Shown: positions 4,558 through 63,686, counted from the stretch's first letter. The stretch is 64,000 nt of DNA from Candidatus Omnitrophota bacterium (GCA_020341815.1 CP070837.1:311035-375034), one strand, 5' to 3'. Translations and numbers: made by a program. The notes: generated by a model not told the origin, from the letters alone.

Positions 4558-5187
4558 ATGGCGGAGAAAAAATCACAAAAAAAAGCAGAAGAGACGAAAC
4601 AGGCCCGCCTAAAGACTGGCGGACAGGCCCGCCCGCCCTCGGCTTCGCCGAGAGGCGAGACGGCGAGGCAGGAAGAGCTGAAACAGCCGGAATTAATAGA
4701 AAAAGTAGTTGCTGTTAATCGCACTGCAAAAGTAGTTAAGGGTGGCCGGCGTTTCGCATTTAGCGCTTTGGTAGTGGTGGGGGATGCTTGCGGTAATCTG
4801 GGTTATGGCTTCGGCAAGGCGCGTGAAGTGGCTGAGGCCATTCGTAAAGGTTTAAATGCAGCCAAGAAACATATGTTTAAGGTTTCCTTAAAAGATACCA
4901 CCATTATTCATGAAATTGAAGGAAAGTTTAGCGCGGCAAGAGTTATTTTAAAGCCCGCCTCAAAAGGAACAGGGGTAATTGCCGGCGGGGCGGTGAGAGC
5001 GGTATGTGAAGCCGCGGGAATTAAGGATATATTAACTAAAAGTATTCGTTCCGATAATCCTATCAATGTAGCCAGGGCCGCTATCGAAGGTCTGCTTAGT
5101 CTGAAAACTGAAAAAACTCAAAGTCAAACTTTCATAGATGAGTCTGAGGCTGAGGCCGAAGAAGAGGCAACTGATGCGACTCAATGA
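4558..5187 (+). CDS. rpsE: 30S ribosomal protein S5 with a repeat-derived N-terminal insertion
   Basis: [13 protein letters not shown] and [12 protein letters not shown] motifs. Confidence 0.98.
4601..4672. repeat. In-frame palindromic REP-like insertion (24 bp + 45 bp units) inside rpsE
   Basis: AGG-CCCGCCTAAAGACTGGCGGAC-AGG-CCCGCC[CGCCCTCGGCTTCGCCGAGAGGCG]AGACGGCGAGGC-AGG. The first unit is near-identical to 63310-63336. Confidence 0.85.
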
Positions 5188-10176: not shown

Positions 10177-11160
10177 ATGGGAGTTAAATGGAGAAATTTT
10201 GAAATGCCGAAGAGATTGGAATGTGATGAGTCCACATATTCTGATTCTTATGCCAAATTTATTGCGGAGCCTTTTGAACGAGGATATGGCATTACTGTCG
10301 GCAACTCTTTGCGAAGGATATTGATTTCTTCCATAGAGGGTAGTGCCGTCACTTCTGTTAAGATTGAAGGGGTATTGCACGAATTTTCCAGTATTCCCGG
10401 AGTTGTCGAAGATGTCCCTGAGATTATCTTAAATATCAAAAGGCTCATCTTGCGCGCACACACTAAAAACCCTAAGACCATTTTTATTAAAATAGAAAAG
10501 AAGGGAGACGTCAAGGCCCGGGATATCATTACGGATGAGACCGTTGAGGTCATCAATCCCGATTTGCACATCGCTACGCTTTCTAAAAATACGAAGTTTT
10601 ATGTGGAGATGGAAGTGGGGCGCGGCAGGGGTTATGTCTCTGCGGAAAAAAACAAAAAAGAATCCCATGCTCTGGGAGTCATACCTGTAGACTCGATATT
10701 TTCACCGGTAACAAGAGTAAATTTCCATGTGGAAAACACCCGCGTAGGGCAGATGACCGATTATGAGCGGCTTATTCTGGAGGTCTGGACCAATAAAAGC
10801 ATGAACCCTAAAGACAGTCTGCTTTATGCCTCTAACATACTGCAGAAACACCTGGAGGTATTTGTCGGCTTCGGTCAGTTGCCCGAAGAAGAGGTAGCCG
10901 AAGAAAGCGAAGAGGATCAGGAGCTCTATGAAAAATTAAGGCAGCCTATTTCCGAGCTTGAGCTTTCGGTAAGAAGCGTCAATTGCCTGGAGGAGGCAAA
11001 AATCAAGACTATCGGAGACCTGGTGCAGAAGACAGAGATGGAAATGCTCAAATACAGAAACTTTGGCAAAAAGTCTTTAACCGAGATCAACAATATTCTT
11101 AAATCGTTATCTTTGTCTTTAGGGATGAAAGTAGACACAAAGAGATTGAAGAAAAAATAA
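10177..11160 (+). CDS. rpoA: RNA polymerase subunit alpha
   Basis: EPFERGYGITVGNSLRRIL, LSVRSVNCL and RNFGKKSL motifs. Confidence 0.99.
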   Translation: MGVKWRNFEMPKRLECDESTYSDSYAKFIAEPFERGYGITVGNSLRRILISSIEGSAVTSVKIEGVLHEFSSIPGVVEDVPEIILNIKRLILRAHTKNPKTIFIKIEKKGDVKARDIITDETVEVINPDLHIATLSKNTKFYVEMEVGRGRGYVSAEKNKKESHALGVIPVDSIFSPVTRVNFHVENTRVGQMTDYERLILEVWTNKSMNPKDSLLYASNILQKHLEVFVGFGQLPEEEVAEESEEDQELYEKLRQPISELELSVRSVNCLEEAKIKTIGDLVQKTEMEMLKYRNFGKKSLTEINNILKSLSLSLGMKVDTKRLKKK

Positions 11161-11165
11161 GGAGA

Positions 11166-11249
11166 CACTGAAACCACTGAAAAATAATCACTGAAACCAC
11201 TGAAGTTTTTCTTTCAGTCTTCTCAGTGATAATTTCAGTCTTCTCAGTG
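11166..11249. repeat. CACTGA-doublet palindromic repeat, copy 2
   Basis: Two CACTGAAACCACTGAA units, then two TTCAGTCTTCTCAGTG units, between rpoA and rplQ. Confidence 0.92.
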
Positions 11250-11258
11250 ATTACAAAA

Positions 11259-11786
11259 ATGCGCCATCGAAAATTTTCTAAAAGACGCATCAGTCGCAAA
11301 TATGGGCATCGCCGCTCTACATTGCGCAATCTGGTAATCAATCTTTTAAAATATCAAAAAATCAAGACTACGCCCGCTAAGGCACGTCTTGCGCAGTCTT
11401 CATTTGAACATTTGGTCTCTTTAGCCAAAAAAGACACGCTTCATTCGCGCAGACAGGCCTATAAACTGCTGGATAACAGGGCTGCGGTCTTGGAGCTCTT
11501 TTCACGAATCACTCCTTTATTTAAGGGGAAGACTTCAGGCTTTACCCGAATAATTCGCACCTCTTACAGGCACGGAGACGGCGCGCAATTAGTCTTTCTG
11601 GAACTTACAAATAAGTTGCCTAAGGTAAAGCCCCGCAAAGCTCCGCATGAGAAACCTAAGGCGGAAGTTAAAGAAAAGGAAGAGATAAAACCTAAAGAAA
11701 AGCTCAGGGCCCCTAAGAAATTGAAGCCGAAGAAATTTTTAGGAGGCTTACGCCGGCTATTTAAAAAGGAAAGAGATGCTCTGTGA
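11259..11786 (+). CDS. rplQ: 50S ribosomal protein L17 with a long basic C-terminal extension
   Basis: MRHRK start at ATG 11259, IKTTPAKA and GFTRII...RHGDGA motifs. Confidence 0.97.
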   Translation: MRHRKFSKRRISRKYGHRRSTLRNLVINLLKYQKIKTTPAKARLAQSSFEHLVSLAKKDTLHSRRQAYKLLDNRAAVLELFSRITPLFKGKTSGFTRIIRTSYRHGDGAQLVFLELTNKLPKVKPRKAPHEKPKAEVKEKEEIKPKEKLRAPKKLKPKKFLGGLRRLFKKERDAL

Positions 11787-11787
11787 A

Positions 11788-11897
11788 CCCAGCCCTTCCA
11801 AATACCACGCCTTGCTATAATAGCTATGGATAAAAGCAATAGATAAAAGGAAGGATGGGGATAAAGGCTTGACATTATCAAGAAAGGAAGGGCTGGG
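11788..11897. mobile_element. MITE-like TIR element, diverged copy C (110 bp)
   Basis: 12-bp TIR CCCAGCCCTTCC/GGAAGGGCTGGG flanked by TGAA direct repeats (11784-11787 and 11898-11901). Homologous to 29357-29465 and 31025-31133. Confidence 0.8.
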
Positions 11898-13063
11898 TGA
11901 AAATAGCCCGAAGAGTAACAGAAGTTGCTCCTTCGCTGACCCTGGAAATTACATCTTTGGCAAGAAAAATGAAAGAGCAGGGCGGAAAAATAGTTAATTT
12001 TGCCGCCGGAGAGCCGGATTCGGATACCCCCGAATATATAAAAAAGGCGGCAATAGAAGCTATCGAGCAAGGATTTACTAAATATACGCCCGCAGCAGGA
12101 TGGCCGAAGCTAAAAGAAGCTATATCTAAAAAGTTCAAAAAAGAGAATCAGCTAAGCTATTCCCCCGAACAAATCGTTGTCAGCTGCGGGGCGAAGCACG
12201 CCCTCTATAATATCCTGCAGGTCCTCTGCGAAAAAGAAGATGAAGTAATTATTGCCTCTCCCTACTGGGTAAGTTACCCTGAGATGGTAAAACTGGCAGG
12301 GGCAACCGCGCATATTGTGCAAACCCAACCCCAGAATCAGTTCAAATTAGATAAAAGATCATTAGCCTCCGCTATTACCAAAAAAACTAAAGCAGTTATT
12401 CTTAATAGCCCCGCAAACCCTACCGGCTCTGTCTATTCCCAGGATGAACTTGAGGAAATCTGCGCTCTGGCGGTTGAACGGAACTTTTATATAATAAGCG
12501 ACGAAATATATGAAAAATTTATTTTTGACGGAAAGAAACACATCTCTTGCGCCTCCCTGAATGAAGAGATTTACAGGCGCACTATAGTAGTCAATGGGGT
12601 ATCCAAAAGTTACTCTATGACCGGATGGAGAATCGGCTACCTGGCCTCACCAGATGAGAAAATAATCCAGGCAATAAAAAAACTACAAAGTCATTCTACC
12701 TCCAATCCCTGTTCAATTAGCCAAAAGGCCGCATATCAGGCTTTAGAGAAGACAGACAAAACCCAAATGCAAAAGATGCTGAAGAGCTTCCAGGAAAGAC
12801 GCGATTGCATGCTGAGGGGCTTGGATGAGATTTCCGGTTTATCTTATATAAAGCCGGAAGGCGCATTTTATGTATTTTGCGACATCTCTCAATTAAAACT
12901 GGACTCGATTACTTTTTGCCGAAAACTGCTTGAAGAGGCCGAAATAGCCGCTGTTCCGGGTGAGGCATTCGGTCGAGATGATTATATCCGTTTGAGTTTT
13001 GCTACAAGCAGGAATGAAATAGAAGAAGGCCTGCGCAGATTAAAGAAATGGGTTACACGATAG
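11897..13063 (+). CDS. aspC: PLP-dependent aspartate aminotransferase (class I/II)
   Basis: AGEPD, NSPANPTG, ISDEIY and SKSYSMTGWRIGY motifs. Confidence 0.9.
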   Translation: MKIARRVTEVAPSLTLEITSLARKMKEQGGKIVNFAAGEPDSDTPEYIKKAAIEAIEQGFTKYTPAAGWPKLKEAISKKFKKENQLSYSPEQIVVSCGAKHALYNILQVLCEKEDEVIIASPYWVSYPEMVKLAGATAHIVQTQPQNQFKLDKRSLASAITKKTKAVILNSPANPTGSVYSQDELEEICALAVERNFYIISDEIYEKFIFDGKKHISCASLNEEIYRRTIVVNGVSKSYSMTGWRIGYLASPDEKIIQAIKKLQSHSTSNPCSISQKAAYQALEKTDKTQMQKMLKSFQERRDCMLRGLDEISGLSYIKPEGAFYVFCDISQLKLDSITFCRKLLEEAEIAAVPGEAFGRDDYIRLSFATSRNEIEEGLRRLKKWVTR

Positions 13064-29350: not shown

Positions 29351-29356
29351 AATGAA

Positions 29357-29465
29357 CCCCGCCCTTCCAAACATCACGCTTTGCATAATAGATATAGGCA
29401 AAGATAATAAAAGAAAGGGCGGAATAAAATTTAACCTTGGCCTTACGAAGAAAGGAAGGGCGGGG
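29357..29465. mobile_element. MITE-like TIR element, copy A (109 bp)
   Basis: TIR CCCCGCCCTTCC/GGAAGGGCGGGG with TGAA direct repeats at 29353-29356 and 29466-29469. One mismatch to copy B. Confidence 0.88.
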
Positions 29466-30412
29466 TGAAAAAAAACAAATTATTTGTTTTTTTAAGAATA
29501 TTGATTAGCCTCTGTTTGCTGGCATTGCTGCTATGGCTGGGCCGGGACAATTTCGCAAAAATCGGACAACTATTGAGCTCGGTCAATATATCTATTTTTG
29601 GGCTGGCTCTTGTGTTATTTCTGCTTAGTATTATTATTATGGCCTGGAGGCTGCGGCTTGCGCTGATTGTGCAGGGAAGCTCTTTCGGTGTGGGTGCGCT
29701 ATTTTCTCTGACACTGGTGGGGCTTTTCTTTAGCAATTTTATGCCTACTTCGGTCGGTGGGGACTTGGTAAAAGGCTATTATATTTCTCGCAAAAACAAA
29801 AACAAAATGTCCTCATACGCCTCCGTCTTCGTTGACCGGGTAATAGGCGTCTTTTCCCTTGCCTTAATCGCAAGTGCTGCCCTTGTGATTGGCAGGGGAG
29901 ATATTGAGCATAAGTTTATATTCTGGACCATTGGCCTTTTACTTGTGGCCTGCATTATATCTGCACTTTGTCTGATGAATAAGAAATTGCTGAAGAAAAT
30001 AAGCGGCTCCCTGGGCATCCTGCGTCTTTTGCGCATCTTAAAAGTCGATTCTCTTCTTAAGAGGGCATATGAGGCTATAAACATTTATATAAATTACAAA
30101 AAAACAATCTTTCAATTATTTACTCTTTCTCTGGTCTCGCAATTTATTTCCTTTTTCTCTATGTACATTTTGGCTAACAGCCTCTCACTTTACATTCCTT
30201 TTGAAAGGATTCTTCTGGTTATGCCGATTATTATTGTCTTATGCATGCTGCCTCTGACCATGAATGGATTGGGCCTGCGCGAATGGGCCTTTGTCTTTTT
30301 CTTCAGCCCCAATGTGGGCGAGGCCGCTGCGCTTTCATTTTCGCTGTTATATCTGGCAATGTTTCTCTTGACCAGCCTTTTGGGTGGAATAATCTATTTA
30401 TTCTGGAGGTAA
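29465..30412 (+). CDS. Lysylphosphatidylglycerol synthase TM / flippase-like protein (UPF0104)
   Basis: FFSNFMPTSVGGD, VFVDR and LPLTMNGLGLRE motifs; polytopic membrane protein. Confidence 0.88.
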   Translation: MKKNKLFVFLRILISLCLLALLLWLGRDNFAKIGQLLSSVNISIFGLALVLFLLSIIIMAWRLRLALIVQGSSFGVGALFSLTLVGLFFSNFMPTSVGGDLVKGYYISRKNKNKMSSYASVFVDRVIGVFSLALIASAALVIGRGDIEHKFIFWTIGLLLVACIISALCLMNKKLLKKISGSLGILRLLRILKVDSLLKRAYEAINIYINYKKTIFQLFTLSLVSQFISFFSMYILANSLSLYIPFERILLVMPIIIVLCMLPLTMNGLGLREWAFVFFFSPNVGEAAALSFSLLYLAMFLLTSLLGGIIYLFWR

Positions 30413-30415
30413 AAA

Positions 30416-30574
30416 ATGGATGAAGAACTATTGAATATTCTGGCCTGCCCTGCCTGCAAGGCCGATGTAGAATTAAAAGAAGACAAAGTAGTCTGTAAGG
30501 GCTGTAAAGCCAAATATCCAATCCGGGACGGTATTCCCATTATGTTAATCGAAGAGAGGGAAACAGAACAATGA
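30416..30574 (+). CDS. Trm112 family protein (below ORF-track size cutoff)
   Basis: Manual translation [15 protein letters not shown]...[18 protein letters not shown]...; SD GGAGG. Confidence 0.9.
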
Positions 30575-31017
30575 CAAAGATATTAGTTATTCACGGGCCC
30601 AATCTGGACCTTTTAGGTAAGCGCCAGCCGGAAATCTATGGTAGTTTTACCCTGGATGAAATCAACAAGCGCATGAAGAAAATAGCACAGGAAGAGAAGA
30701 TAGAAATAGAATTCTTACAATCCAACCACGAAGGCGAGATTGTCGATGCCATCGGAGAGGCAAAGAATAAGTTCTCCGTCCTACTGATTAATCCGGCTGC
30801 CTACACCCATACCAGCGTGGCTATTCGCGATGCCATCAGCGCCTCAGGCCTGCCTTGCGTGGAAGTTCATCTGTCGAATATTTACGCCCGCGAAGAGTTC
30901 AGACACACCTCTTTAATTGCCCCTGTGGCTAGAGGCCAAATCTGCGGATTCGGCATTGACAGTTACCTTCTAGGGTTACGCGCGGCAATAAACCTGGCAA
31001 AGGCAAGGGGCGCTTAA
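30571..31017 (+). CDS. aroQ: Type II 3-dehydroquinate dehydratase
   Basis: [25 protein letters not shown] and EVHLSN motifs. Confidence 0.98.
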
Positions 31018-31024
31018 GGGTGAA

Positions 31025-31133
31025 CCCCGCCCTTCCAAATATCACGCTTTGCATAATAGATATAGGCAAAGATAATAAAAGAAAGGGCGGAATAAAATTT
31101 AACCTTGGCCTTACGAAGAAAGGAAGGGCGGGG
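31025..31133. mobile_element. MITE-like TIR element, copy B (109 bp)
   Basis: Same TIRs as copy A, with TGAA direct repeats at 31021-31024 and 31134-31137. Confidence 0.88.
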
Positions 31134-32182
31134 TGAATACTGCGGCCATAAATAAATTACGTCAGGAACTCTCCCGGCATAAGCTTGACGCCTTCCTGAT
31201 AAGTAAAGGCACAAATGTAGCCTATCTCAGCGGGTTTAGAGGGGAGGGCCAGCTTTTAATTACCCCGAGCAAAAAAATCCTGCTTGTCGACTTCAGGTTT
31301 AAAGAAGAGGCTGAGAAACATTGTGCATCTTGTCGCGTTTATACGCGTGAGGCCTTTGAGCCGTTGGAGAAAAGCCTGTTTTATTTAGTTAAAAAATTAA
31401 GGTTCAAAAGGATAGGGTTTGAGGCCTCATCTTTGTCCTATGAGTTTCATCATAAACTGAAAAATATTTTTAAATCTATAAAGCTATTACCTCTTGGGAG
31501 AGTTATAGAGGCCCTGCGAGCGGTAAAGAACGGGCAGGAGATTAAGCATCTTAAGGCGGCCGCCGCCCTGAGCGTAAGGAGCTTTGACTTTGCCAGAAAG
31601 ATTATCCGGCCCGGCAAAAAGGAGGCGGAAATTGCCCGCGAACTTCAATACTTTATACGCAAGCAGGGAGCTGAAGACTCTGCCTTTGATATAATTGTGG
31701 CCTCCGGCAAGAGGAGCTCGCTGCCCCATGCGCCTGTTTCCGCTAAAGTTATCAAAAAAAATGAGGTGGTTCTGGTAGACTTAGGATGCCGCCTGAACGG
31801 CTACAATTCCGACTTGACAAGGGTGGTCTTTTTAGGTAAAATTAGGGACAAAATTAAGCGGGTTTATGAGGTAGTTCTTCGGGCGCAACGGCTTGCGATC
31901 GAGGCCATAAAGGCGGGCGAAAGGGTAAGCGAGATCGATAAGGTGGCGCGCCAATACATAGCCAGCGCCGGCTTAGGGGCCCTTTTTGGACATGCCTTAG
32001 GGCACGGCATCGGCAGAGAAGTCCATGAACAGCCCTATATTTCCCCTAACAATCAGGACTTCTTAAAAGAAAATATGGTATTTACGGTGGAGCCGGGAGT
32101 TTATATACCTGGCTTAGGCGGGATAAGAGTGGAGGATATGGTTCGCGTTACCAGAAGAGGCGTTGAGGTATTGACCCAGTGA
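31133..32182 (+). CDS. Xaa-Pro aminopeptidase (M24B)
   Basis: SLPH, DLG...[24 protein letters not shown] and RVED motifs. Confidence 0.93.
31814..31842 (+). promoter_or_regulatory. Intragenic sigma70 promoter candidate for efp-accBC
   Basis: TTGACA-17 bp-TAAAAT inside the peptidase CDS. Confidence 0.6.
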
Positions 32183-33206: not shown

Positions 33207-34562
33207 ATGTTTTCTAAAGTCCTGATTGCCAATCGGGGAGAGATTGCTTTAAGGATTATCCGCGCCTGCAAAGAAATGGGCGTGCGCACCGTAGCGGTCT
33301 ACTCCCAGCCCGATGTTAATTCTCTACACGTGCGTCTGGCGGATGAGGCCATCTGTATCGGCCGCGCCGCGCCGGCTGAGAGCTATCTGAGCATCCCCAG
33401 CATTATCAGCGCAGCCGAGATTGCCGATGTGGAAGCCATCCATCCCGGTTATGGCTTTCTGGCGGAAAATGCCCACTTTGCGGAAATCTGCGCTTCCTGT
33501 AACATCAATTTCATCGGGCCAAAGCCTGAGCCGATGAGGTTAATGGGCGATAAGCTGCAGGCGAAGGCCACTATGCGCAAGGCCGGAATACCGGTTGTGC
33601 CCGGCAGCACAGAAGCGGTGCAGGACAAAGACAAGGCCATAAAGATTGCCCAGCGGCTTAAATATCCGGTGATTATTAAGGCCGCAGCCGGAGGCGGCGG
33701 CAAAGGAATGCGCGTATGCCATAACGATGTGCGCCTGGTCAGCGCCCTGCTTACAGCCCAGGCGGAGGCAGAGGCAGCTTTCGGCAAGCCGGAGGTCTAC
33801 ATAGAGAAATATTTTTCCCGGCCGCGCCATATAGAGTTTCAAATCCTGGCGGATAACTTTGGGCGCATAATTCATTTAGGGGAAAGGGACTGCACTATCC
33901 AAAGACGCCATCAGAAGCTAATCGAAGAATCGCCCTCTATGGCTATCAATGCTAAACTGCGCAAACGTATGGGGGAGGCCGCCATCAAGGCCGCCAAGTC
34001 CGTCAATTACAATAGCGCAGGCACCATAGAATTTCTTCTTGATGAAAAAAACAATTTTTATTTTTTGGAAATGAATACGCGTATTCAGGTTGAGCACGGC
34101 GTTACCGAAATGGTTACGGGCGTAGACCTGCTCAAAGAGCAAATCAGGATTGCCGCGGGAGAGAAATTACGCCTTAACCAGGACGATGTCAAAATAAAAG
34201 GATGGGCAATGGAGTGCCGCATCAACGCCGAAGACCCCAACAACAACTTCACGCCTTCCCCTGGAAGGATCACCTCCTACAATGTCCCGGGCGGACCGGG
34301 GGTGCGCGTTGACAGCTGCGTATATCAGAATTATAATATCCTGCCTTATTATGATTCCCTGATTGCCAAGCTGATTGCGCACGGCAAAACAAGGAATGAG
34401 GCCATCCGGATTATGCTGCGGGCGCTTGAGGAATACGTAATCGAACCGGTAAAGACGACTCTGCCTTTTTGCAGAGACGTATTGAACGACGCGCGCTTCT
34501 TGAGAGGCAAGGTTTATACAGATTTTACGGATATCTTGATTTCCGAAAAACAAAAAGAGTAA
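33207..34562 (+). CDS. accC: Biotin carboxylase
   Basis: [25 protein letters not shown] and [10 protein letters not shown] motifs. Confidence 0.98.
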
Positions 34563-34625
34563 CACTGAGGACACTGAAAGAAAAATTTCAGTGGTTTCAG
34601 TGTAACAATTTCAGTGATTTCAGTG
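34563..34625. repeat. CACTGA-doublet palindromic repeat, copy 3
   Basis: CACTGAGGACACTGAA...TTCAGTGGTTTCAGTG...TTCAGTGATTTCAGTG directly after the accC stop. Confidence 0.9.
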
Positions 34626-34642
34626 ATAAAAGGGAGGTAAAA

Positions 34643-47213: not shown

Positions 47214-47818
47214 TTTTGATTTCGCTTCCGATTTTCTTTATTGCGGTTGTGATTCATGAATATGCCCATGGCTGGGTGGCCTACAAATTAGGCGACCCCA
47301 CGGCGAAGTATGCCGGCAGGCTTACTCTCAACCCCCTGGCCCATATAGATATGATGGGAACGATAGTTCTGCCGCTTCTGTTAATCATGATGCGTTCTCC
47401 GTTTATCTTCGGCTGGGCAAAGCCTGTGCCCATAAACTTTGCTCTTCTGCGCCGGCCCAGGCAGGATATATTCTGGGTAAGCATAGCAGGGATTGCCGCT
47501 AATCTCTTACTGGCTGTATTTCTTGCTTTTTTATTAAGAATAAGGCTATTTCCGCTTAACAGCTATGGCTGGCTATTTTTAAATTACGGAATTATCATCA
47601 ATTTAGTGCTGGCGGTTTTTAACGCCATCCCCATACCGCCCTTGGACGGCTCAAAAATTCTGTTGCGATTTTTACCCACGGATTTGGCCCGTTCATATCT
47701 TCAGCTTGAGCGTTTCGGTTTTCTTATCCTCATAATCCTTTTGTGGATGGGGCTATTAAGAAAGATTATCTGGCCGTTGGTAATAACCCTGGCCCGTAGT
47801 TTAGGAGTAAGCTTTTAA
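47210..47818 (+). CDS. Site-2 protease family (M50) protein
   Basis: HEYAH, GDPT...GRLTLNP, GWAKPVP and FNAIPIPPLDG motifs. Confidence 0.95.
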   Translation: MILISLPIFFIAVVIHEYAHGWVAYKLGDPTAKYAGRLTLNPLAHIDMMGTIVLPLLLIMMRSPFIFGWAKPVPINFALLRRPRQDIFWVSIAGIAANLLLAVFLAFLLRIRLFPLNSYGWLFLNYGIIINLVLAVFNAIPIPPLDGSKILLRFLPTDLARSYLQLERFGFLILIILLWMGLLRKIIWPLVITLARSLGVSF

Positions 47819-47820
47819 AA

Positions 47821-47911
47821 CAGTATTTAGTCGTTCGTATTTCGTATCTAGTAAAACAAAAAAATAATAAAAATTTTTAACAAGATACTAGATACTAGCG
47901 ACTAGATACTA
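47821..47911. repeat. Heptamer-array palindrome, copy 2
   Basis: CAGTATT TAGTCGT TCGTATT TCGTATC, an A-rich core, then AAGATAC TAGATAC TAGCGAC TAGATAC. Confidence 0.9.
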
Positions 47912-47927
47912 TATAGAAGAAAAAATT

Positions 47928-62102: not shown

Positions 62103-62720
62103 ATGTTTAATAAAATAAAAAATAATTTTCTTACCGGGCTTGTGGTAATCCTTCCTCTTATTCTTACTATAATAATTTTCCGATTTCTGATAAAACAGAT
62201 TAACGATATTGTGCTGGTGCCGACAATGGAATTATTGGGTCTGCATTTCTATAATCCTTATTGGGTATATATATCCAGAGGCATCGGTTTTTTGATTATA
62301 GTTCTACTTATAATCTTAATCGGCCTGGCAACGAGATTGCTTCTCTTGCGTAAATTTTTCGGCTTCTGGGAAAAGCTGATAGCAAAAGTGCCGATGCTCG
62401 GCAAAATCTATATTACTATAAAACAGATAAGCCGCGCATTTTTAGGGCAGGGTAAATATGTATTTGATAAGGTGGTACTGGTCGAGTATCCGCGCCGGGG
62501 CATATATTCCCTGGGTTTTATTACAGCCGAAGGCTGCGAAGAAATCCAGGAAAAGACTAAAACAGGCAGCGTTTATGTCTTTTTACCCACTACCCCTAAC
62601 CCTACCAACGGCTTCTTCTTAATCATCCCCAAAGAGGAGGTCGTACCGCTTTCGATGTCCGTGGCCGATGCTTTTAAACTTATTGTTTCCGGCGGAACCT
62701 TCTCGCCGCCACATAAATAG
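62103..62720 (+). CDS. DUF502 domain membrane protein
   Basis: FLTGL...P, VEYPRRG and FLPTTPNPTNGF motifs. Confidence 0.92.
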   Translation: MFNKIKNNFLTGLVVILPLILTIIIFRFLIKQINDIVLVPTMELLGLHFYNPYWVYISRGIGFLIIVLLIILIGLATRLLLLRKFFGFWEKLIAKVPMLGKIYITIKQISRAFLGQGKYVFDKVVLVEYPRRGIYSLGFITAEGCEEIQEKTKTGSVYVFLPTTPNPTNGFFLIIPKEEVVPLSMSVADAFKLIVSGGTFSPPHK

Positions 62721-62811
62721 TATCTAGTATCTAGTCGTTAGTATCTAGTTAAAATTTTTTTGTCTTTTACTAGATACCAGATACAAGCGACTAGCGACTA
62801 ATTAGCGACTA
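62718..62811. repeat. Heptamer-array palindrome, copy 3 (core inverted)
   Basis: TAGTATC TAGTATC TAGTCGT TAGTATC, a T-rich core, then TAGATAC CAGATAC AAGCGAC TAGCGAC. Confidence 0.9.
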
Positions 62812-62816
62812 ATAAT

Positions 62817-63578
62817 ATGGCTATCCAGAAAAGCGAAGCGATTGTCTTGAAAACTTCTGACTTTCGCGAAACCAGCCTCGTGGTAAATCTTTTCACAAAG
62901 GATTTTGGCAAGCTCGGCGGCCTCATCAAAGGCATAAGGCTTACCCCCCAAAGATACGGGGGAATGCCTCTGATTTTCTCCCGCAGCTCCATTGTGTTTT
63001 ATCAAAATCCCAAAAGAGATTTAAGCCTGGTTACCCAGTGCGATGCCCAGGAACAATTCCTGCCTATCCGGGAAGATTTAGAAAAGACCGCTTACGCCAA
63101 TTATTTTCTCGAGCTTCTGGATACGGTTACCCAGGATTATGATAAAAACGAAAGGCTTTTTGAATTAACGGTCGATGCCTTAAGAGCCCTTTGTCATACC
63201 CGGGAAAGCTGGCGGATTGCCCGCATATTCGAAATTCGGCTTTTGAATTTTTCAGGGTTTAAGCCGCGCCTGGATTCCTGCGTCAACTGCCAAAAAGAGA
63301 TTGTTCAAGAGGCCCGCCTAAAGACTGGCGGGCAGGGCAGATTTAGTTCAATCCTGGGAGGCATACTTTGTGAGCGCTGCTTTGGGCATGATAAAAATGC
63401 CCAGGCAACACTAAAAGGAACCCTGGCCTCCATAGAGTATATTGAAAAATCGGACTGGTCCAAGGCACTGCGTCTTAAAATAGCTCCTGATATAGCGGCA
63501 GAGCTGGTAACCATTTTGAATAGCTTCCTGGATATCCACTTAGACAAAGAGATCAAATCCCGAAAATTTTTACACTGA
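62817..63578 (+). CDS. recO: DNA repair protein RecO
   Basis: AIVLK...ETS...LFTKDFGKL OB fold; CVNC...GGILCERC zinc finger; adjacent to glyQS. Confidence 0.95.
   Translation: MAIQKSEAIVLKTSDFRETSLVVNLFTKDFGKLGGLIKGIRLTPQRYGGMPLIFSRSSIVFYQNPKRDLSLVTQCDAQEQFLPIREDLEKTAYANYFLELLDTVTQDYDKNERLFELTVDALRALCHTRESWRIARIFEIRLLNFSGFKPRLDSCVNCQKEIVQEARLKTGGQGRFSSILGGILCERCFGHDKNAQATLKGTLASIEYIEKSDWSKALRLKIAPDIAAELVTILNSFLDIHLDKEIKSRKFLH
63310..63336. repeat. In-frame 24-bp palindromic insertion in recO
   Basis: AGG-CCCGCCTAAAGACTGGCGGGC-AGG, the same module as in rpsE. Confidence 0.85.
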
Positions 63579-63676
63579 GGGCGCTGAATTATCACTGAAA
63601 GCACTGAAAAAAATGACACTGAGAACACTGAATAAAACTCAGCGGCCTCAGTGGTCACTCTTCAGTGATTTCAGTG
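63573..63676. repeat. CACTGA-doublet palindromic repeat, copy 4
   Basis: Three CACTGA doublets then two TCAG(T/C)G doublets; the first unit contains the recO TGA stop. Confidence 0.9.
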
Positions 63677-63686
63677 ACAAAAATTC

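Follow-up and report, generated by a model that had tools for sequence, protein, structure and literature searches.

The DNA analyzed here is a 64,000-nt window of the genome of a Candidatus Omnitrophota bacterium (CP070837.1:311035-375034; the source genome is called G000 below), and coordinates given without a contig refer to the whole window. Three copies of a small gene-less element, A, B and C, lie in it at junctions between genes: copy C between rplQ and an aminotransferase class I/II gene, copy A between a Memo-like gene (amrB) and an LPG_synthase_TM gene, and copy B between aroQ and a peptidase M24 gene. An earlier note on this DNA had given the positions and lengths of the copies, their 12-bp inverted arms and the TGAA on both sides, all of which were borne out in the three copies. 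The individual features, including the predicted mini-open reading frames (mini-ORFs) that begin at the old start codons, are as follows.

11784-11787, + strand: left TGAA of copy C, where the rplQ stop TGA overlaps the old GTG (11783-11785)
11788-11897, + strand: copy C, 110 bp, with a variant arm pair; its mini-ORF ends after 16 codons (stop 11831-11833)
11898-11901, + strand: right TGAA of copy C, in the new GTG (11897-11899)
11897-13063, + strand: host gene behind copy C, aminotransferase class I/II, 388 residues (profile match)
29353-29356, + strand: left TGAA of copy A, made of the TG of the old ATG (29352-29354) and two bases of codon 2
29357-29465, + strand: copy A, gene-less element of 109 bp, arms 29357-29368 and 29454-29465; its final G opens the rebuilt GTG
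29466-29469, + strand: right TGAA of copy A, which completes the new GTG (29465-29467) and doubles as the mini-ORF stop
29352-29468, + strand: predicted mini-ORF of copy A, 38 codons, from the old ATG to a TGA that overlaps the new GTG by 4 bases
29465-30412, + strand: host gene behind copy A, LPG_synthase_TM, 315 residues (profile match)
31021-31024, + strand: left TGAA of copy B, on the old GTG (31020-31022)
31025-31133, + strand: copy B, 109 bp, arms 31025-31036 and 31122-31133
31134-31137, + strand: right TGAA of copy B, in the new GTG (31133-31135)
31020-31136, + strand: predicted mini-ORF of copy B, 38 codons, its stop overlapping the new GTG
31133-32182, + strand: host gene behind copy B, peptidase M24, 349 residues (profile match)

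Anatomy of the three window copies

The 12-bp arms are CCCCGCCCTTCC and GGAAGGGCGGGG in copies A and B and CCCAGCCCTTCC and GGAAGGGCTGGG in copy C, with TGAA on both sides in all three. As the earlier note had stated, A and B differ by a single base (position 16); copy C is about 74% like them in a gapped alignment. Each strand can form a 13-bp terminal stem (z about -5, with none of 200 shuffles equally stable), and the right arm contains GGAAGG five bases upstream of the rebuilt GTG. The claim that the terminal G of the element and the right TGAA together make up the new GTG of the downstream gene also agrees with our reading of the sequence. The early stop of the mini-ORF in copy C means that this copy is not coupled to its host gene. 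The mini-ORFs of A and B, with their stops on the new GTG, had been overlooked in the earlier note. Rfam placed no family on the elements, its sole match in the window being one tRNA.

Empty sites in related genomes

Contigs from run X2 (study P2), which are ~93% identical, cross all three window sites without the element. The bases skipped in them number 114 at C and 113 at B, and at A 121 bases are replaced by 8 (net 113). These real empty sites match the junctions that the earlier note had restored by deleting A, B and C in silico. Run X1, from which this DNA may itself come, was left out of the evidence. At the peptidase M24 start the element is also absent from all five family relatives searched, so the filled state at copy B is the derived one. 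A second comparison involves two genomes of one genus, G140 and G161: G161 has a single GTGAA at the place filled in G140 by a tandem of a 35-bp short copy and a 289-bp nuclease element, and G161 is without the element at all six further G140 sites, five of which align across the junction and one of which is diverged upstream.

The earlier note had set down beforehand that, if relatives never showed such sites, a conserved regulatory RNA would be the better explanation; empty sites were found both in X2 and in G161 relative to G140. Copies A, B and C are thus confirmed as genuine insertions of a small mobile element, and each insertion adds the element plus one copy of four bases. The short direct repeat being single at the empty site is a feature shared with MITEs (miniature inverted-repeat transposable elements). 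A true duplication and a 4-base matched core lead to the same end states, and the flanking repeat may reflect either.

Distribution of copies in the source genome

A scan of G000 for paired arms returned 74 raw pairs, which were reduced to 60 by removing nested pairs and to 59 counted copies; the arm pair left out, at G000 1420080, is a probable chance match to Gly-Ala-Gly-Phe codons. One divergent copy and two copies cut by assembly gaps were not counted, and the total is at least 59. A search of G000 for unpaired arms found no long element, only chance matches, two gap-cut copies and one divergent copy. The copies are 68 to 128 bp long with diverse interiors, and terminal inverted repeats of 12 bp, as in MITEs, are present in all 59.

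By manual reading of the translations, start codons hold 51 of the 59 copies, and 42 of 59 by an automatic caller (p 6e-50). For background, a home-made gene caller was applied to the genome with the elements removed in silico, in which 429 of 13,871 TGAA sites are starts (3%) and 902 are intergenic. Copies scattered over random TGAA sites, which the earlier note had named as the outcome that would speak against its reading, were therefore not what was observed. Insertion into start codons with tetranucleotide repeats (51/59) is also the pattern described for mycobacterial interspersed repetitive units (MIRUs). The remaining copies comprise seven within genes, each 72 bp including the repeat, six of which preserve the frame while one replaces the gene's last codons, and one copy on a stop codon. 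Every copy, 59 of 59, is in the sense of its host gene.

Occupied starts differ from free ones in their surroundings. Overlaps of -4 with the upstream gene are commoner at occupied starts (21/38 vs 82/391, p 1e-5), and starts far from the upstream gene are rarer among them (2/38 vs 102/391, p 0.003). Among the 26 start copies of a length that permits coupling, 19 have an open frame, vs 2.6 expected; taken over all 51 start copies, and with frames predicted from sequence, 19 are coupled, 6 are fused and 26 are neither. In 6 of 59 cases (three pairs, including A and B) a copy has its closest relative no more than 5 kb away, vs 0.6 expected, and 4 of 13 copies have rare 4-mers in common with their nearest relative, 0.3 being expected (p 0.002). 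A test of local skew, which is confounded with gene direction, gave no difference between occupied starts (54/59) and free starts (403/429).

Several individual copies were also recorded. Two of 68 bp with TTTA flanks (G000:C1:932925-932992 and 933539-933606) lie inside the leaders of two neighboring pilin-like genes, and both, read in another frame, end in basic residues and Gly before F/L-T-L-V-E, which rebuilds a prepilin-type cleavage site in each. A third 68-bp copy (G000:C1:166393-166460) is in frame within uvrA and adds 24 residues. Tandem copies were seen at G000:C1:603825-604003 and at loci L061-L064, L068, L081, L191, L211 and L214, with nuclease elements among the tandems; in these the rebuilt GTGAA or ATGAG has itself been targeted again. 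At G000:C1:1419934-1420186 an element sits on a short dead-end copy of the start of a NAD-dependent epimerase gene and is followed by a left arm and then by a second start, that of a similar gene, possibly a rearranged insertion.

Copies in other genomes

Within the class, 28 of 301 genomes contain the left-end 15-mer, with a patchy distribution and no control matches. A two-arm scan of all genomes identified at least 116 stretches; among the 80 matches listed with titles, 66 are from Omnitrophota, 5 from Planctomycetes, 3 from Clostridia, 1 from Elusimicrobia and 5 from a plain "bacterium", and no title among these 80 is mycobacterial. By this distribution the window itself would probably be of Omnitrophota origin. 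Among 169 distinct copies from outside G000, ATG or GTG stands at the left end of 166, a count in which TGAA was fixed by the search pattern and the preceding base was free, and a long or run-off ORF follows 151, the remainder being mostly tandem copies or short genes. The ends of the element are constant across genomes, and the interiors shrink to a few bases. Viral contigs gave 13 left-end matches, none of which had the right arm.

A probable parent element with a nuclease gene

Long versions of the element were found outside G000, mostly in Omnitrophota. They are 282-289 bp in length, have the same arms and carry one gene for a GIY-YIG nuclease of 96-98 residues; the first two were 289 bp (G140) and 283 bp (L195). 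The element is a single ORF, opened by the start codon of the host gene and closed by a TGA that overlaps the rebuilt GTG; it has no start codon of its own, and its arms serve at the same time as the nuclease gene's first and last codons. The earlier note had described a non-autonomous mobile element with no transposase in the window and had suggested a search for a transposase gene bounded by the same ends. Mobility is upheld by the empty sites, and a coding partner that had been missed does exist in other genomes; what lies between the arms, however, is the small GIY-YIG gene and not a classical transposase.

The Pfam match (PF01541, E 8e-13, 48.9 bits vs a cut-off of 22.6) assigns the predicted protein to the GIY-YIG superfamily. 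Over 18 aligned rows, Y15, Y26, G28, R36 and H40 are invariant and E72 nearly so; this Tyr, Gly, Arg, His and Glu core presumably has catalytic roles, as in the family. NCBIfam returned a sub-threshold match to a group I intron endonuclease and nothing else. The predicted structure (pLDDT 80) has a GIY-YIG fold, whose best fold matches, to Slx1 and 1zg2, are weak (none at E<=0.001), and the best sequence matches in the PDB are UPF0213 proteins (1zg2 and 1ywl), also weak (E 0.001 or above).

Homologues of the nuclease were examined at 68 distinct loci with both flanks available, and arms plus a 4-bp repeat were identified at 34 of them, compared with 1 of 300 random controls. Twenty-eight of the 34 are on the starts of varied genes and 23 are coupled. 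A limit of 55% identity or more leaves 25, and 20 of these are on starts. In a later set of nine loci the strict test was passed by four, each of them at a start and coupled; the remaining five have recognizable arms and no matching repeat. In the tree, the nucleases with the same arms, nine in number, all fall in one clade of 16 rows (support 100/98). More distant nucleases have the same layout with different arms, and the clades differ in their arms. Some distant GIY-YIG elements (L278, L285, L288, L291 and L295) have longer arms and apparently lie in tRNA-like sequence, not at start codons.

Probable descent of the short copies

The short elements are likely derived from the ~285-bp nuclease element, and many of them, including A and B, appear to retain the 3' end of its gene. 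Supporting this, 21 of 59 short copies match the last 14 interior residues of the nuclease at p<=0.01 with the arms excluded, and for A and B the match to the nuclease C-terminus has a p of 0.003. The variable arm positions are third codon positions in the parent frame. These include the paired change of copy C, which the earlier note had taken for a compensatory change in both arms. The pairing of the change stands. In the frame of the parent gene, however, each side of it is synonymous, and the nuclease elements L210, L221, L271, L274 and L312 have it too, so it need not have arisen in place.

Comparison with known systems

In the accounts available of MIRUs (Supply et al. 1997, as summarized in PMC12548453 and PMC3184786), these short repeats number some tens in a genome. 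They insert into start codons and have tetranucleotide direct repeats at their flanks; their sites occur in the empty as well as the filled state, and they contain an ORF that is coupled, at a spacing of -4, to the gene that was hit. Their inverted repeats are described as imperfect (PMC3184786). The behavior of our short copies at start codons, with tetranucleotide repeats, therefore has a precedent; a -4 coupled ORF is predicted in 19 of the 51 start copies. Compared by description only, the present elements differ in belonging to another phylum, in their near-perfect 12-bp arms and in interiors of 26 to ~130 bp; they also have a nuclease-coding full-length partner, whereas no mobilizer of MIRUs is named in these accounts.

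The second comparison is with the Ssn nucleases. Chenal et al. (2025, PMC11893778), in the text available, describe cleavage of single-stranded DNA by SsnA beside a hairpin, in one orientation only; the NTS-ssnA-NTS arrangement is likened to an insertion sequence (IS), with mobility of Ssn given as a hypothesis. Both systems have a single-domain GIY-YIG protein of ~95 residues, encoded here by the parent element, and hairpin repeats spread through the genome. In the Ssn system as described there, NTS and SRM are compact 20-50-nt hairpins beside the gene, whereas here the gene is inside one long-range stem whose arms are codons. The SRM consensus pattern was found in none of 59 short and none of 8 full elements, and neither "start codon" nor "duplication" occurs in the main text of the Ssn paper (PMC11893778).

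Bacterial MITEs, as summarized in the part of PMC3184786 available, resemble the short copies in their inverted ends, short target duplication, gene-less derivatives and some in-frame insertions into genes. They differ in that the coding parent here is ~285 bp, has no DDE, DEDD or Y1 transposase and no start of its own, and inserts in one orientation. The parent protein is itself most like Slx1-like and UPF0213 GIY-YIG proteins, its best weak matches in fold and sequence. These are host repair or uncharacterized proteins and are not known as parts of mobile units. A literature search, with subscription papers and supplements outside it, found no description of a ~285-bp GIY-YIG-only unit that has empty and filled sites and short derivatives, and GIY-YIG is not mentioned in the preprints consulted. 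Judged on its architecture, the parent-plus-derivative system would be categorically new, with the nuclease as its putative mobilizer.

Proposed mechanism and alternatives

The reading that we favor, with a probability of about two in three, is that A, B and C belong to a gene-less mobile element that inserts at RTGAA starts and is likely to be derived from, and moved in trans by, the ~285-bp GIY-YIG element; the role of the nuclease as mobilizer is probable to the same degree. The rebuilt start, the fixed orientation and the nuclease ORF without its own start are seen directly. In the mechanism that we propose, expression of the nuclease would be confined to elements that land on a start. Ribosomes that start at the old codon or end the upstream gene would open the stem and expose the GGAAGG of the right arm, and the host gene would stay expressed by coupling or re-initiation. 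The nuclease would then cut single-stranded DNA at the foot of the stem, as SsnA does, and host repair or replication would join the element into the target by 4-base matching. This chemistry, a single-strand cut followed by host joining through a 4-base match, is a tentative guess, favored because SsnA cuts beside a hairpin in an orientation-specific manner and because sister copies share rare 4-mers, an argument weakened by one pair of paralogues.

As to why starts are hit, the earlier note had allowed for either specialization or selective retention. The bias itself is clear (51/59); between targeting and pure retention the evidence leans toward the former, as the 241 intergenic RTGAA sites far from starts are free of all 59 copies. 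We give slightly better than even odds to a broader proposal, that of a new class of minimal insertion elements (~270-350 bp) whose mobility is driven by a lone GIY-YIG nuclease. Such an element would borrow a host start and transcript to express itself, actively find starts and mobilize gene-less derivatives; its four flanking bases may move along with it and determine the target, and MIRUs might be orphans of a similar system.

It is important to note that a number of observations weigh against this reading. No arm-bounded nuclease was found in G000, although five copies, A and B among them, look recent; completeness of the assembly is 95%, and two of its 19 gaps touch copies. The three small GIY-YIG genes of G000 are without these arms and outside the clade, and a same-arm nuclease is present in only 3 of the 13 class genomes with >=3 left-end matches. 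GIY-YIG enzymes hydrolyze DNA and are not known to rejoin it, so the model has to call on steps by the host. At two of the six further G161 empty sites the start reads TGAG instead of TGAA. Coupling is not required, since neither it nor fusion is seen in 26 of the 51 start copies. The shared rare 4-mers include those of two neighboring pilin paralogues. On descent, copy C is borderline at the protein level (p 0.056), and interior DNA similarity to the parent (the G002 element), which lies mostly in its last 50 interior bases, is significant in 10 of 59 copies and not in A, B or C. Finally, 25 of 59 copies have a mismatch at arm position 7, without a compensatory trend; together with the variation at third codon positions, this makes the arms look constrained as codons as much as by pairing.

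The three GIY-YIG genes of G000 adjoin tRNA or tRNA-like sequence, and two of them abut tRNA-Pro and tRNA-Ser. At G000:C1:241225-241680 a small GIY-YIG gene lies between two copies of one tRNA-like 5' half, the first split by a long palindrome; ARAGORN called no tRNA there.

Among the alternatives, insertion might be indifferent to starts, using any T-N-N-A/G site, with only gene-sparing copies surviving and the nuclease spreading only where it is expressed. The seven in-gene copies, all 72 bp including the repeat and six of them keeping the frame, fit this, as do the lack of a clear motif beyond TGAA that separates occupied from free starts and the full element's want of a start codon; the bias to -4 overlaps (21/38 vs 82/391) could reflect tolerance. 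We nevertheless regard it as unlikely: of the 353 RTGAA sites between genes, 241 are farther than 60 bases from a start, and no copy of the 59 occupies such a site (by manual reading and the home-made gene caller), one copy sitting on a stop codon; moreover, symmetric arms would rebuild GTG either way round, yet 59 of 59 copies follow the sense of the gene.

A rather poorer prospect is an ordinary MITE, whose 4-bp duplication would be the work of a trans-acting IS transposase, DDE or other, with the nuclease carried along as cargo. Its classic anatomy of terminal inverted repeats and a 4-bp duplication is present, and matched variant pairs (TGAG, TTTA, TCAA and TTCA) flank several copies. Against it, profiles DDE_Tnp_1, DDE_Tnp_1_4 and IS110 (Transposase_20) had no match in G000, other IS families not being searched, and a non-exhaustive search for a same-end parent IS with a recognized transposase gave only long elements that encode the GIY-YIG protein. 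The only long versions found between these arms carry the nuclease, of which the arms are codons; the orientation is fixed, and different nuclease clades carry different arms.

A host Y1 (HUH) single-strand transposase that recognizes the stem, as at the ends of IS200/IS605 or in systems of repetitive extragenic palindromic (REP) sequences and REP-associated tyrosine transposases, is improbable. Single-strand chemistry would explain the fixed orientation, and the stem may resemble end hairpins of the IS605 type. There are five Y1_Tnp genes in G000 (G000:C1 868450-869121, 617386-618063, 588266-588967, 962793-963461 and 600211-600747), but none is flanked by these arms: four are bracketed on both sides by inverted or palindromic repeats of their own, and the fifth has one such hairpin, upstream. 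Moreover, Y1 peel-and-paste is not known to make a target duplication, yet variant 4-mers match on both sides of copies.

Still more improbable is an RNA intermediate, in which the nuclease would nick the target and a reverse transcriptase in trans would copy the transcript in, as in Penelope-like elements. The strict sense orientation, including five copies against the local GC skew, and the sister copies within 5 kb (6/59 vs 0.6 expected) would suit it, but RVT_1 had no match in G000, both ends are precise, and strand is largely confounded with replication direction, 94% of genes following the local skew. A conserved, immobile cis-regulatory RNA leader, attractive in that a strong stem sequesters the new ribosome-binding site, is refuted by the empty sites in close relatives, with unrelated host genes, tandem copies and the lack of any Rfam match on the elements also opposing it.

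Other repeats in the window

Three other repeat families were noted. One has inverted arms in which CACTGAA-like units face TTCAGTG-like units (24-146, 11153-11255, 34560-34631 and 63570-63682); it lies at gene junctions, one of them between rpoA and rplQ, and a loose pattern finds 75 tandem unit pairs in the genome. Another, with a 7-base period, has TAGTATC-like units facing CTAGATA-like units (1654-1760, 47818-47915 and 62711-62799), lies between genes and has 19 genome matches to one unit pattern. The third is a 30-base REP-like hairpin at 4598-4627 and 63307-63336 (93% identical), the first in the 5' end of a called gene.

Implications

Recognized transposase classes include DDE, DEDD, HUH, serine and tyrosine. 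If the nuclease does mobilize these elements, a DNA cutter of <100 residues would run an insertion element outside those five classes, a new kind of jumping gene, and many small GIY-YIG genes between inverted repeats would be explained. The empty sites are direct evidence for a kind of mobility that, in the Ssn text available, is only hypothesized for ssnA, and the system provides a model, open to testing, of the way in which MIRU-like repeats arrive at start codons. An element that lands on starts and rebuilds them could spread in gene-dense genomes without gene loss. For G000 itself, about 50 genes have rewired initiation, with ATG changed to GTG, a new ribosome-binding site and a leader ORF, and start annotation can mislead at such genes.

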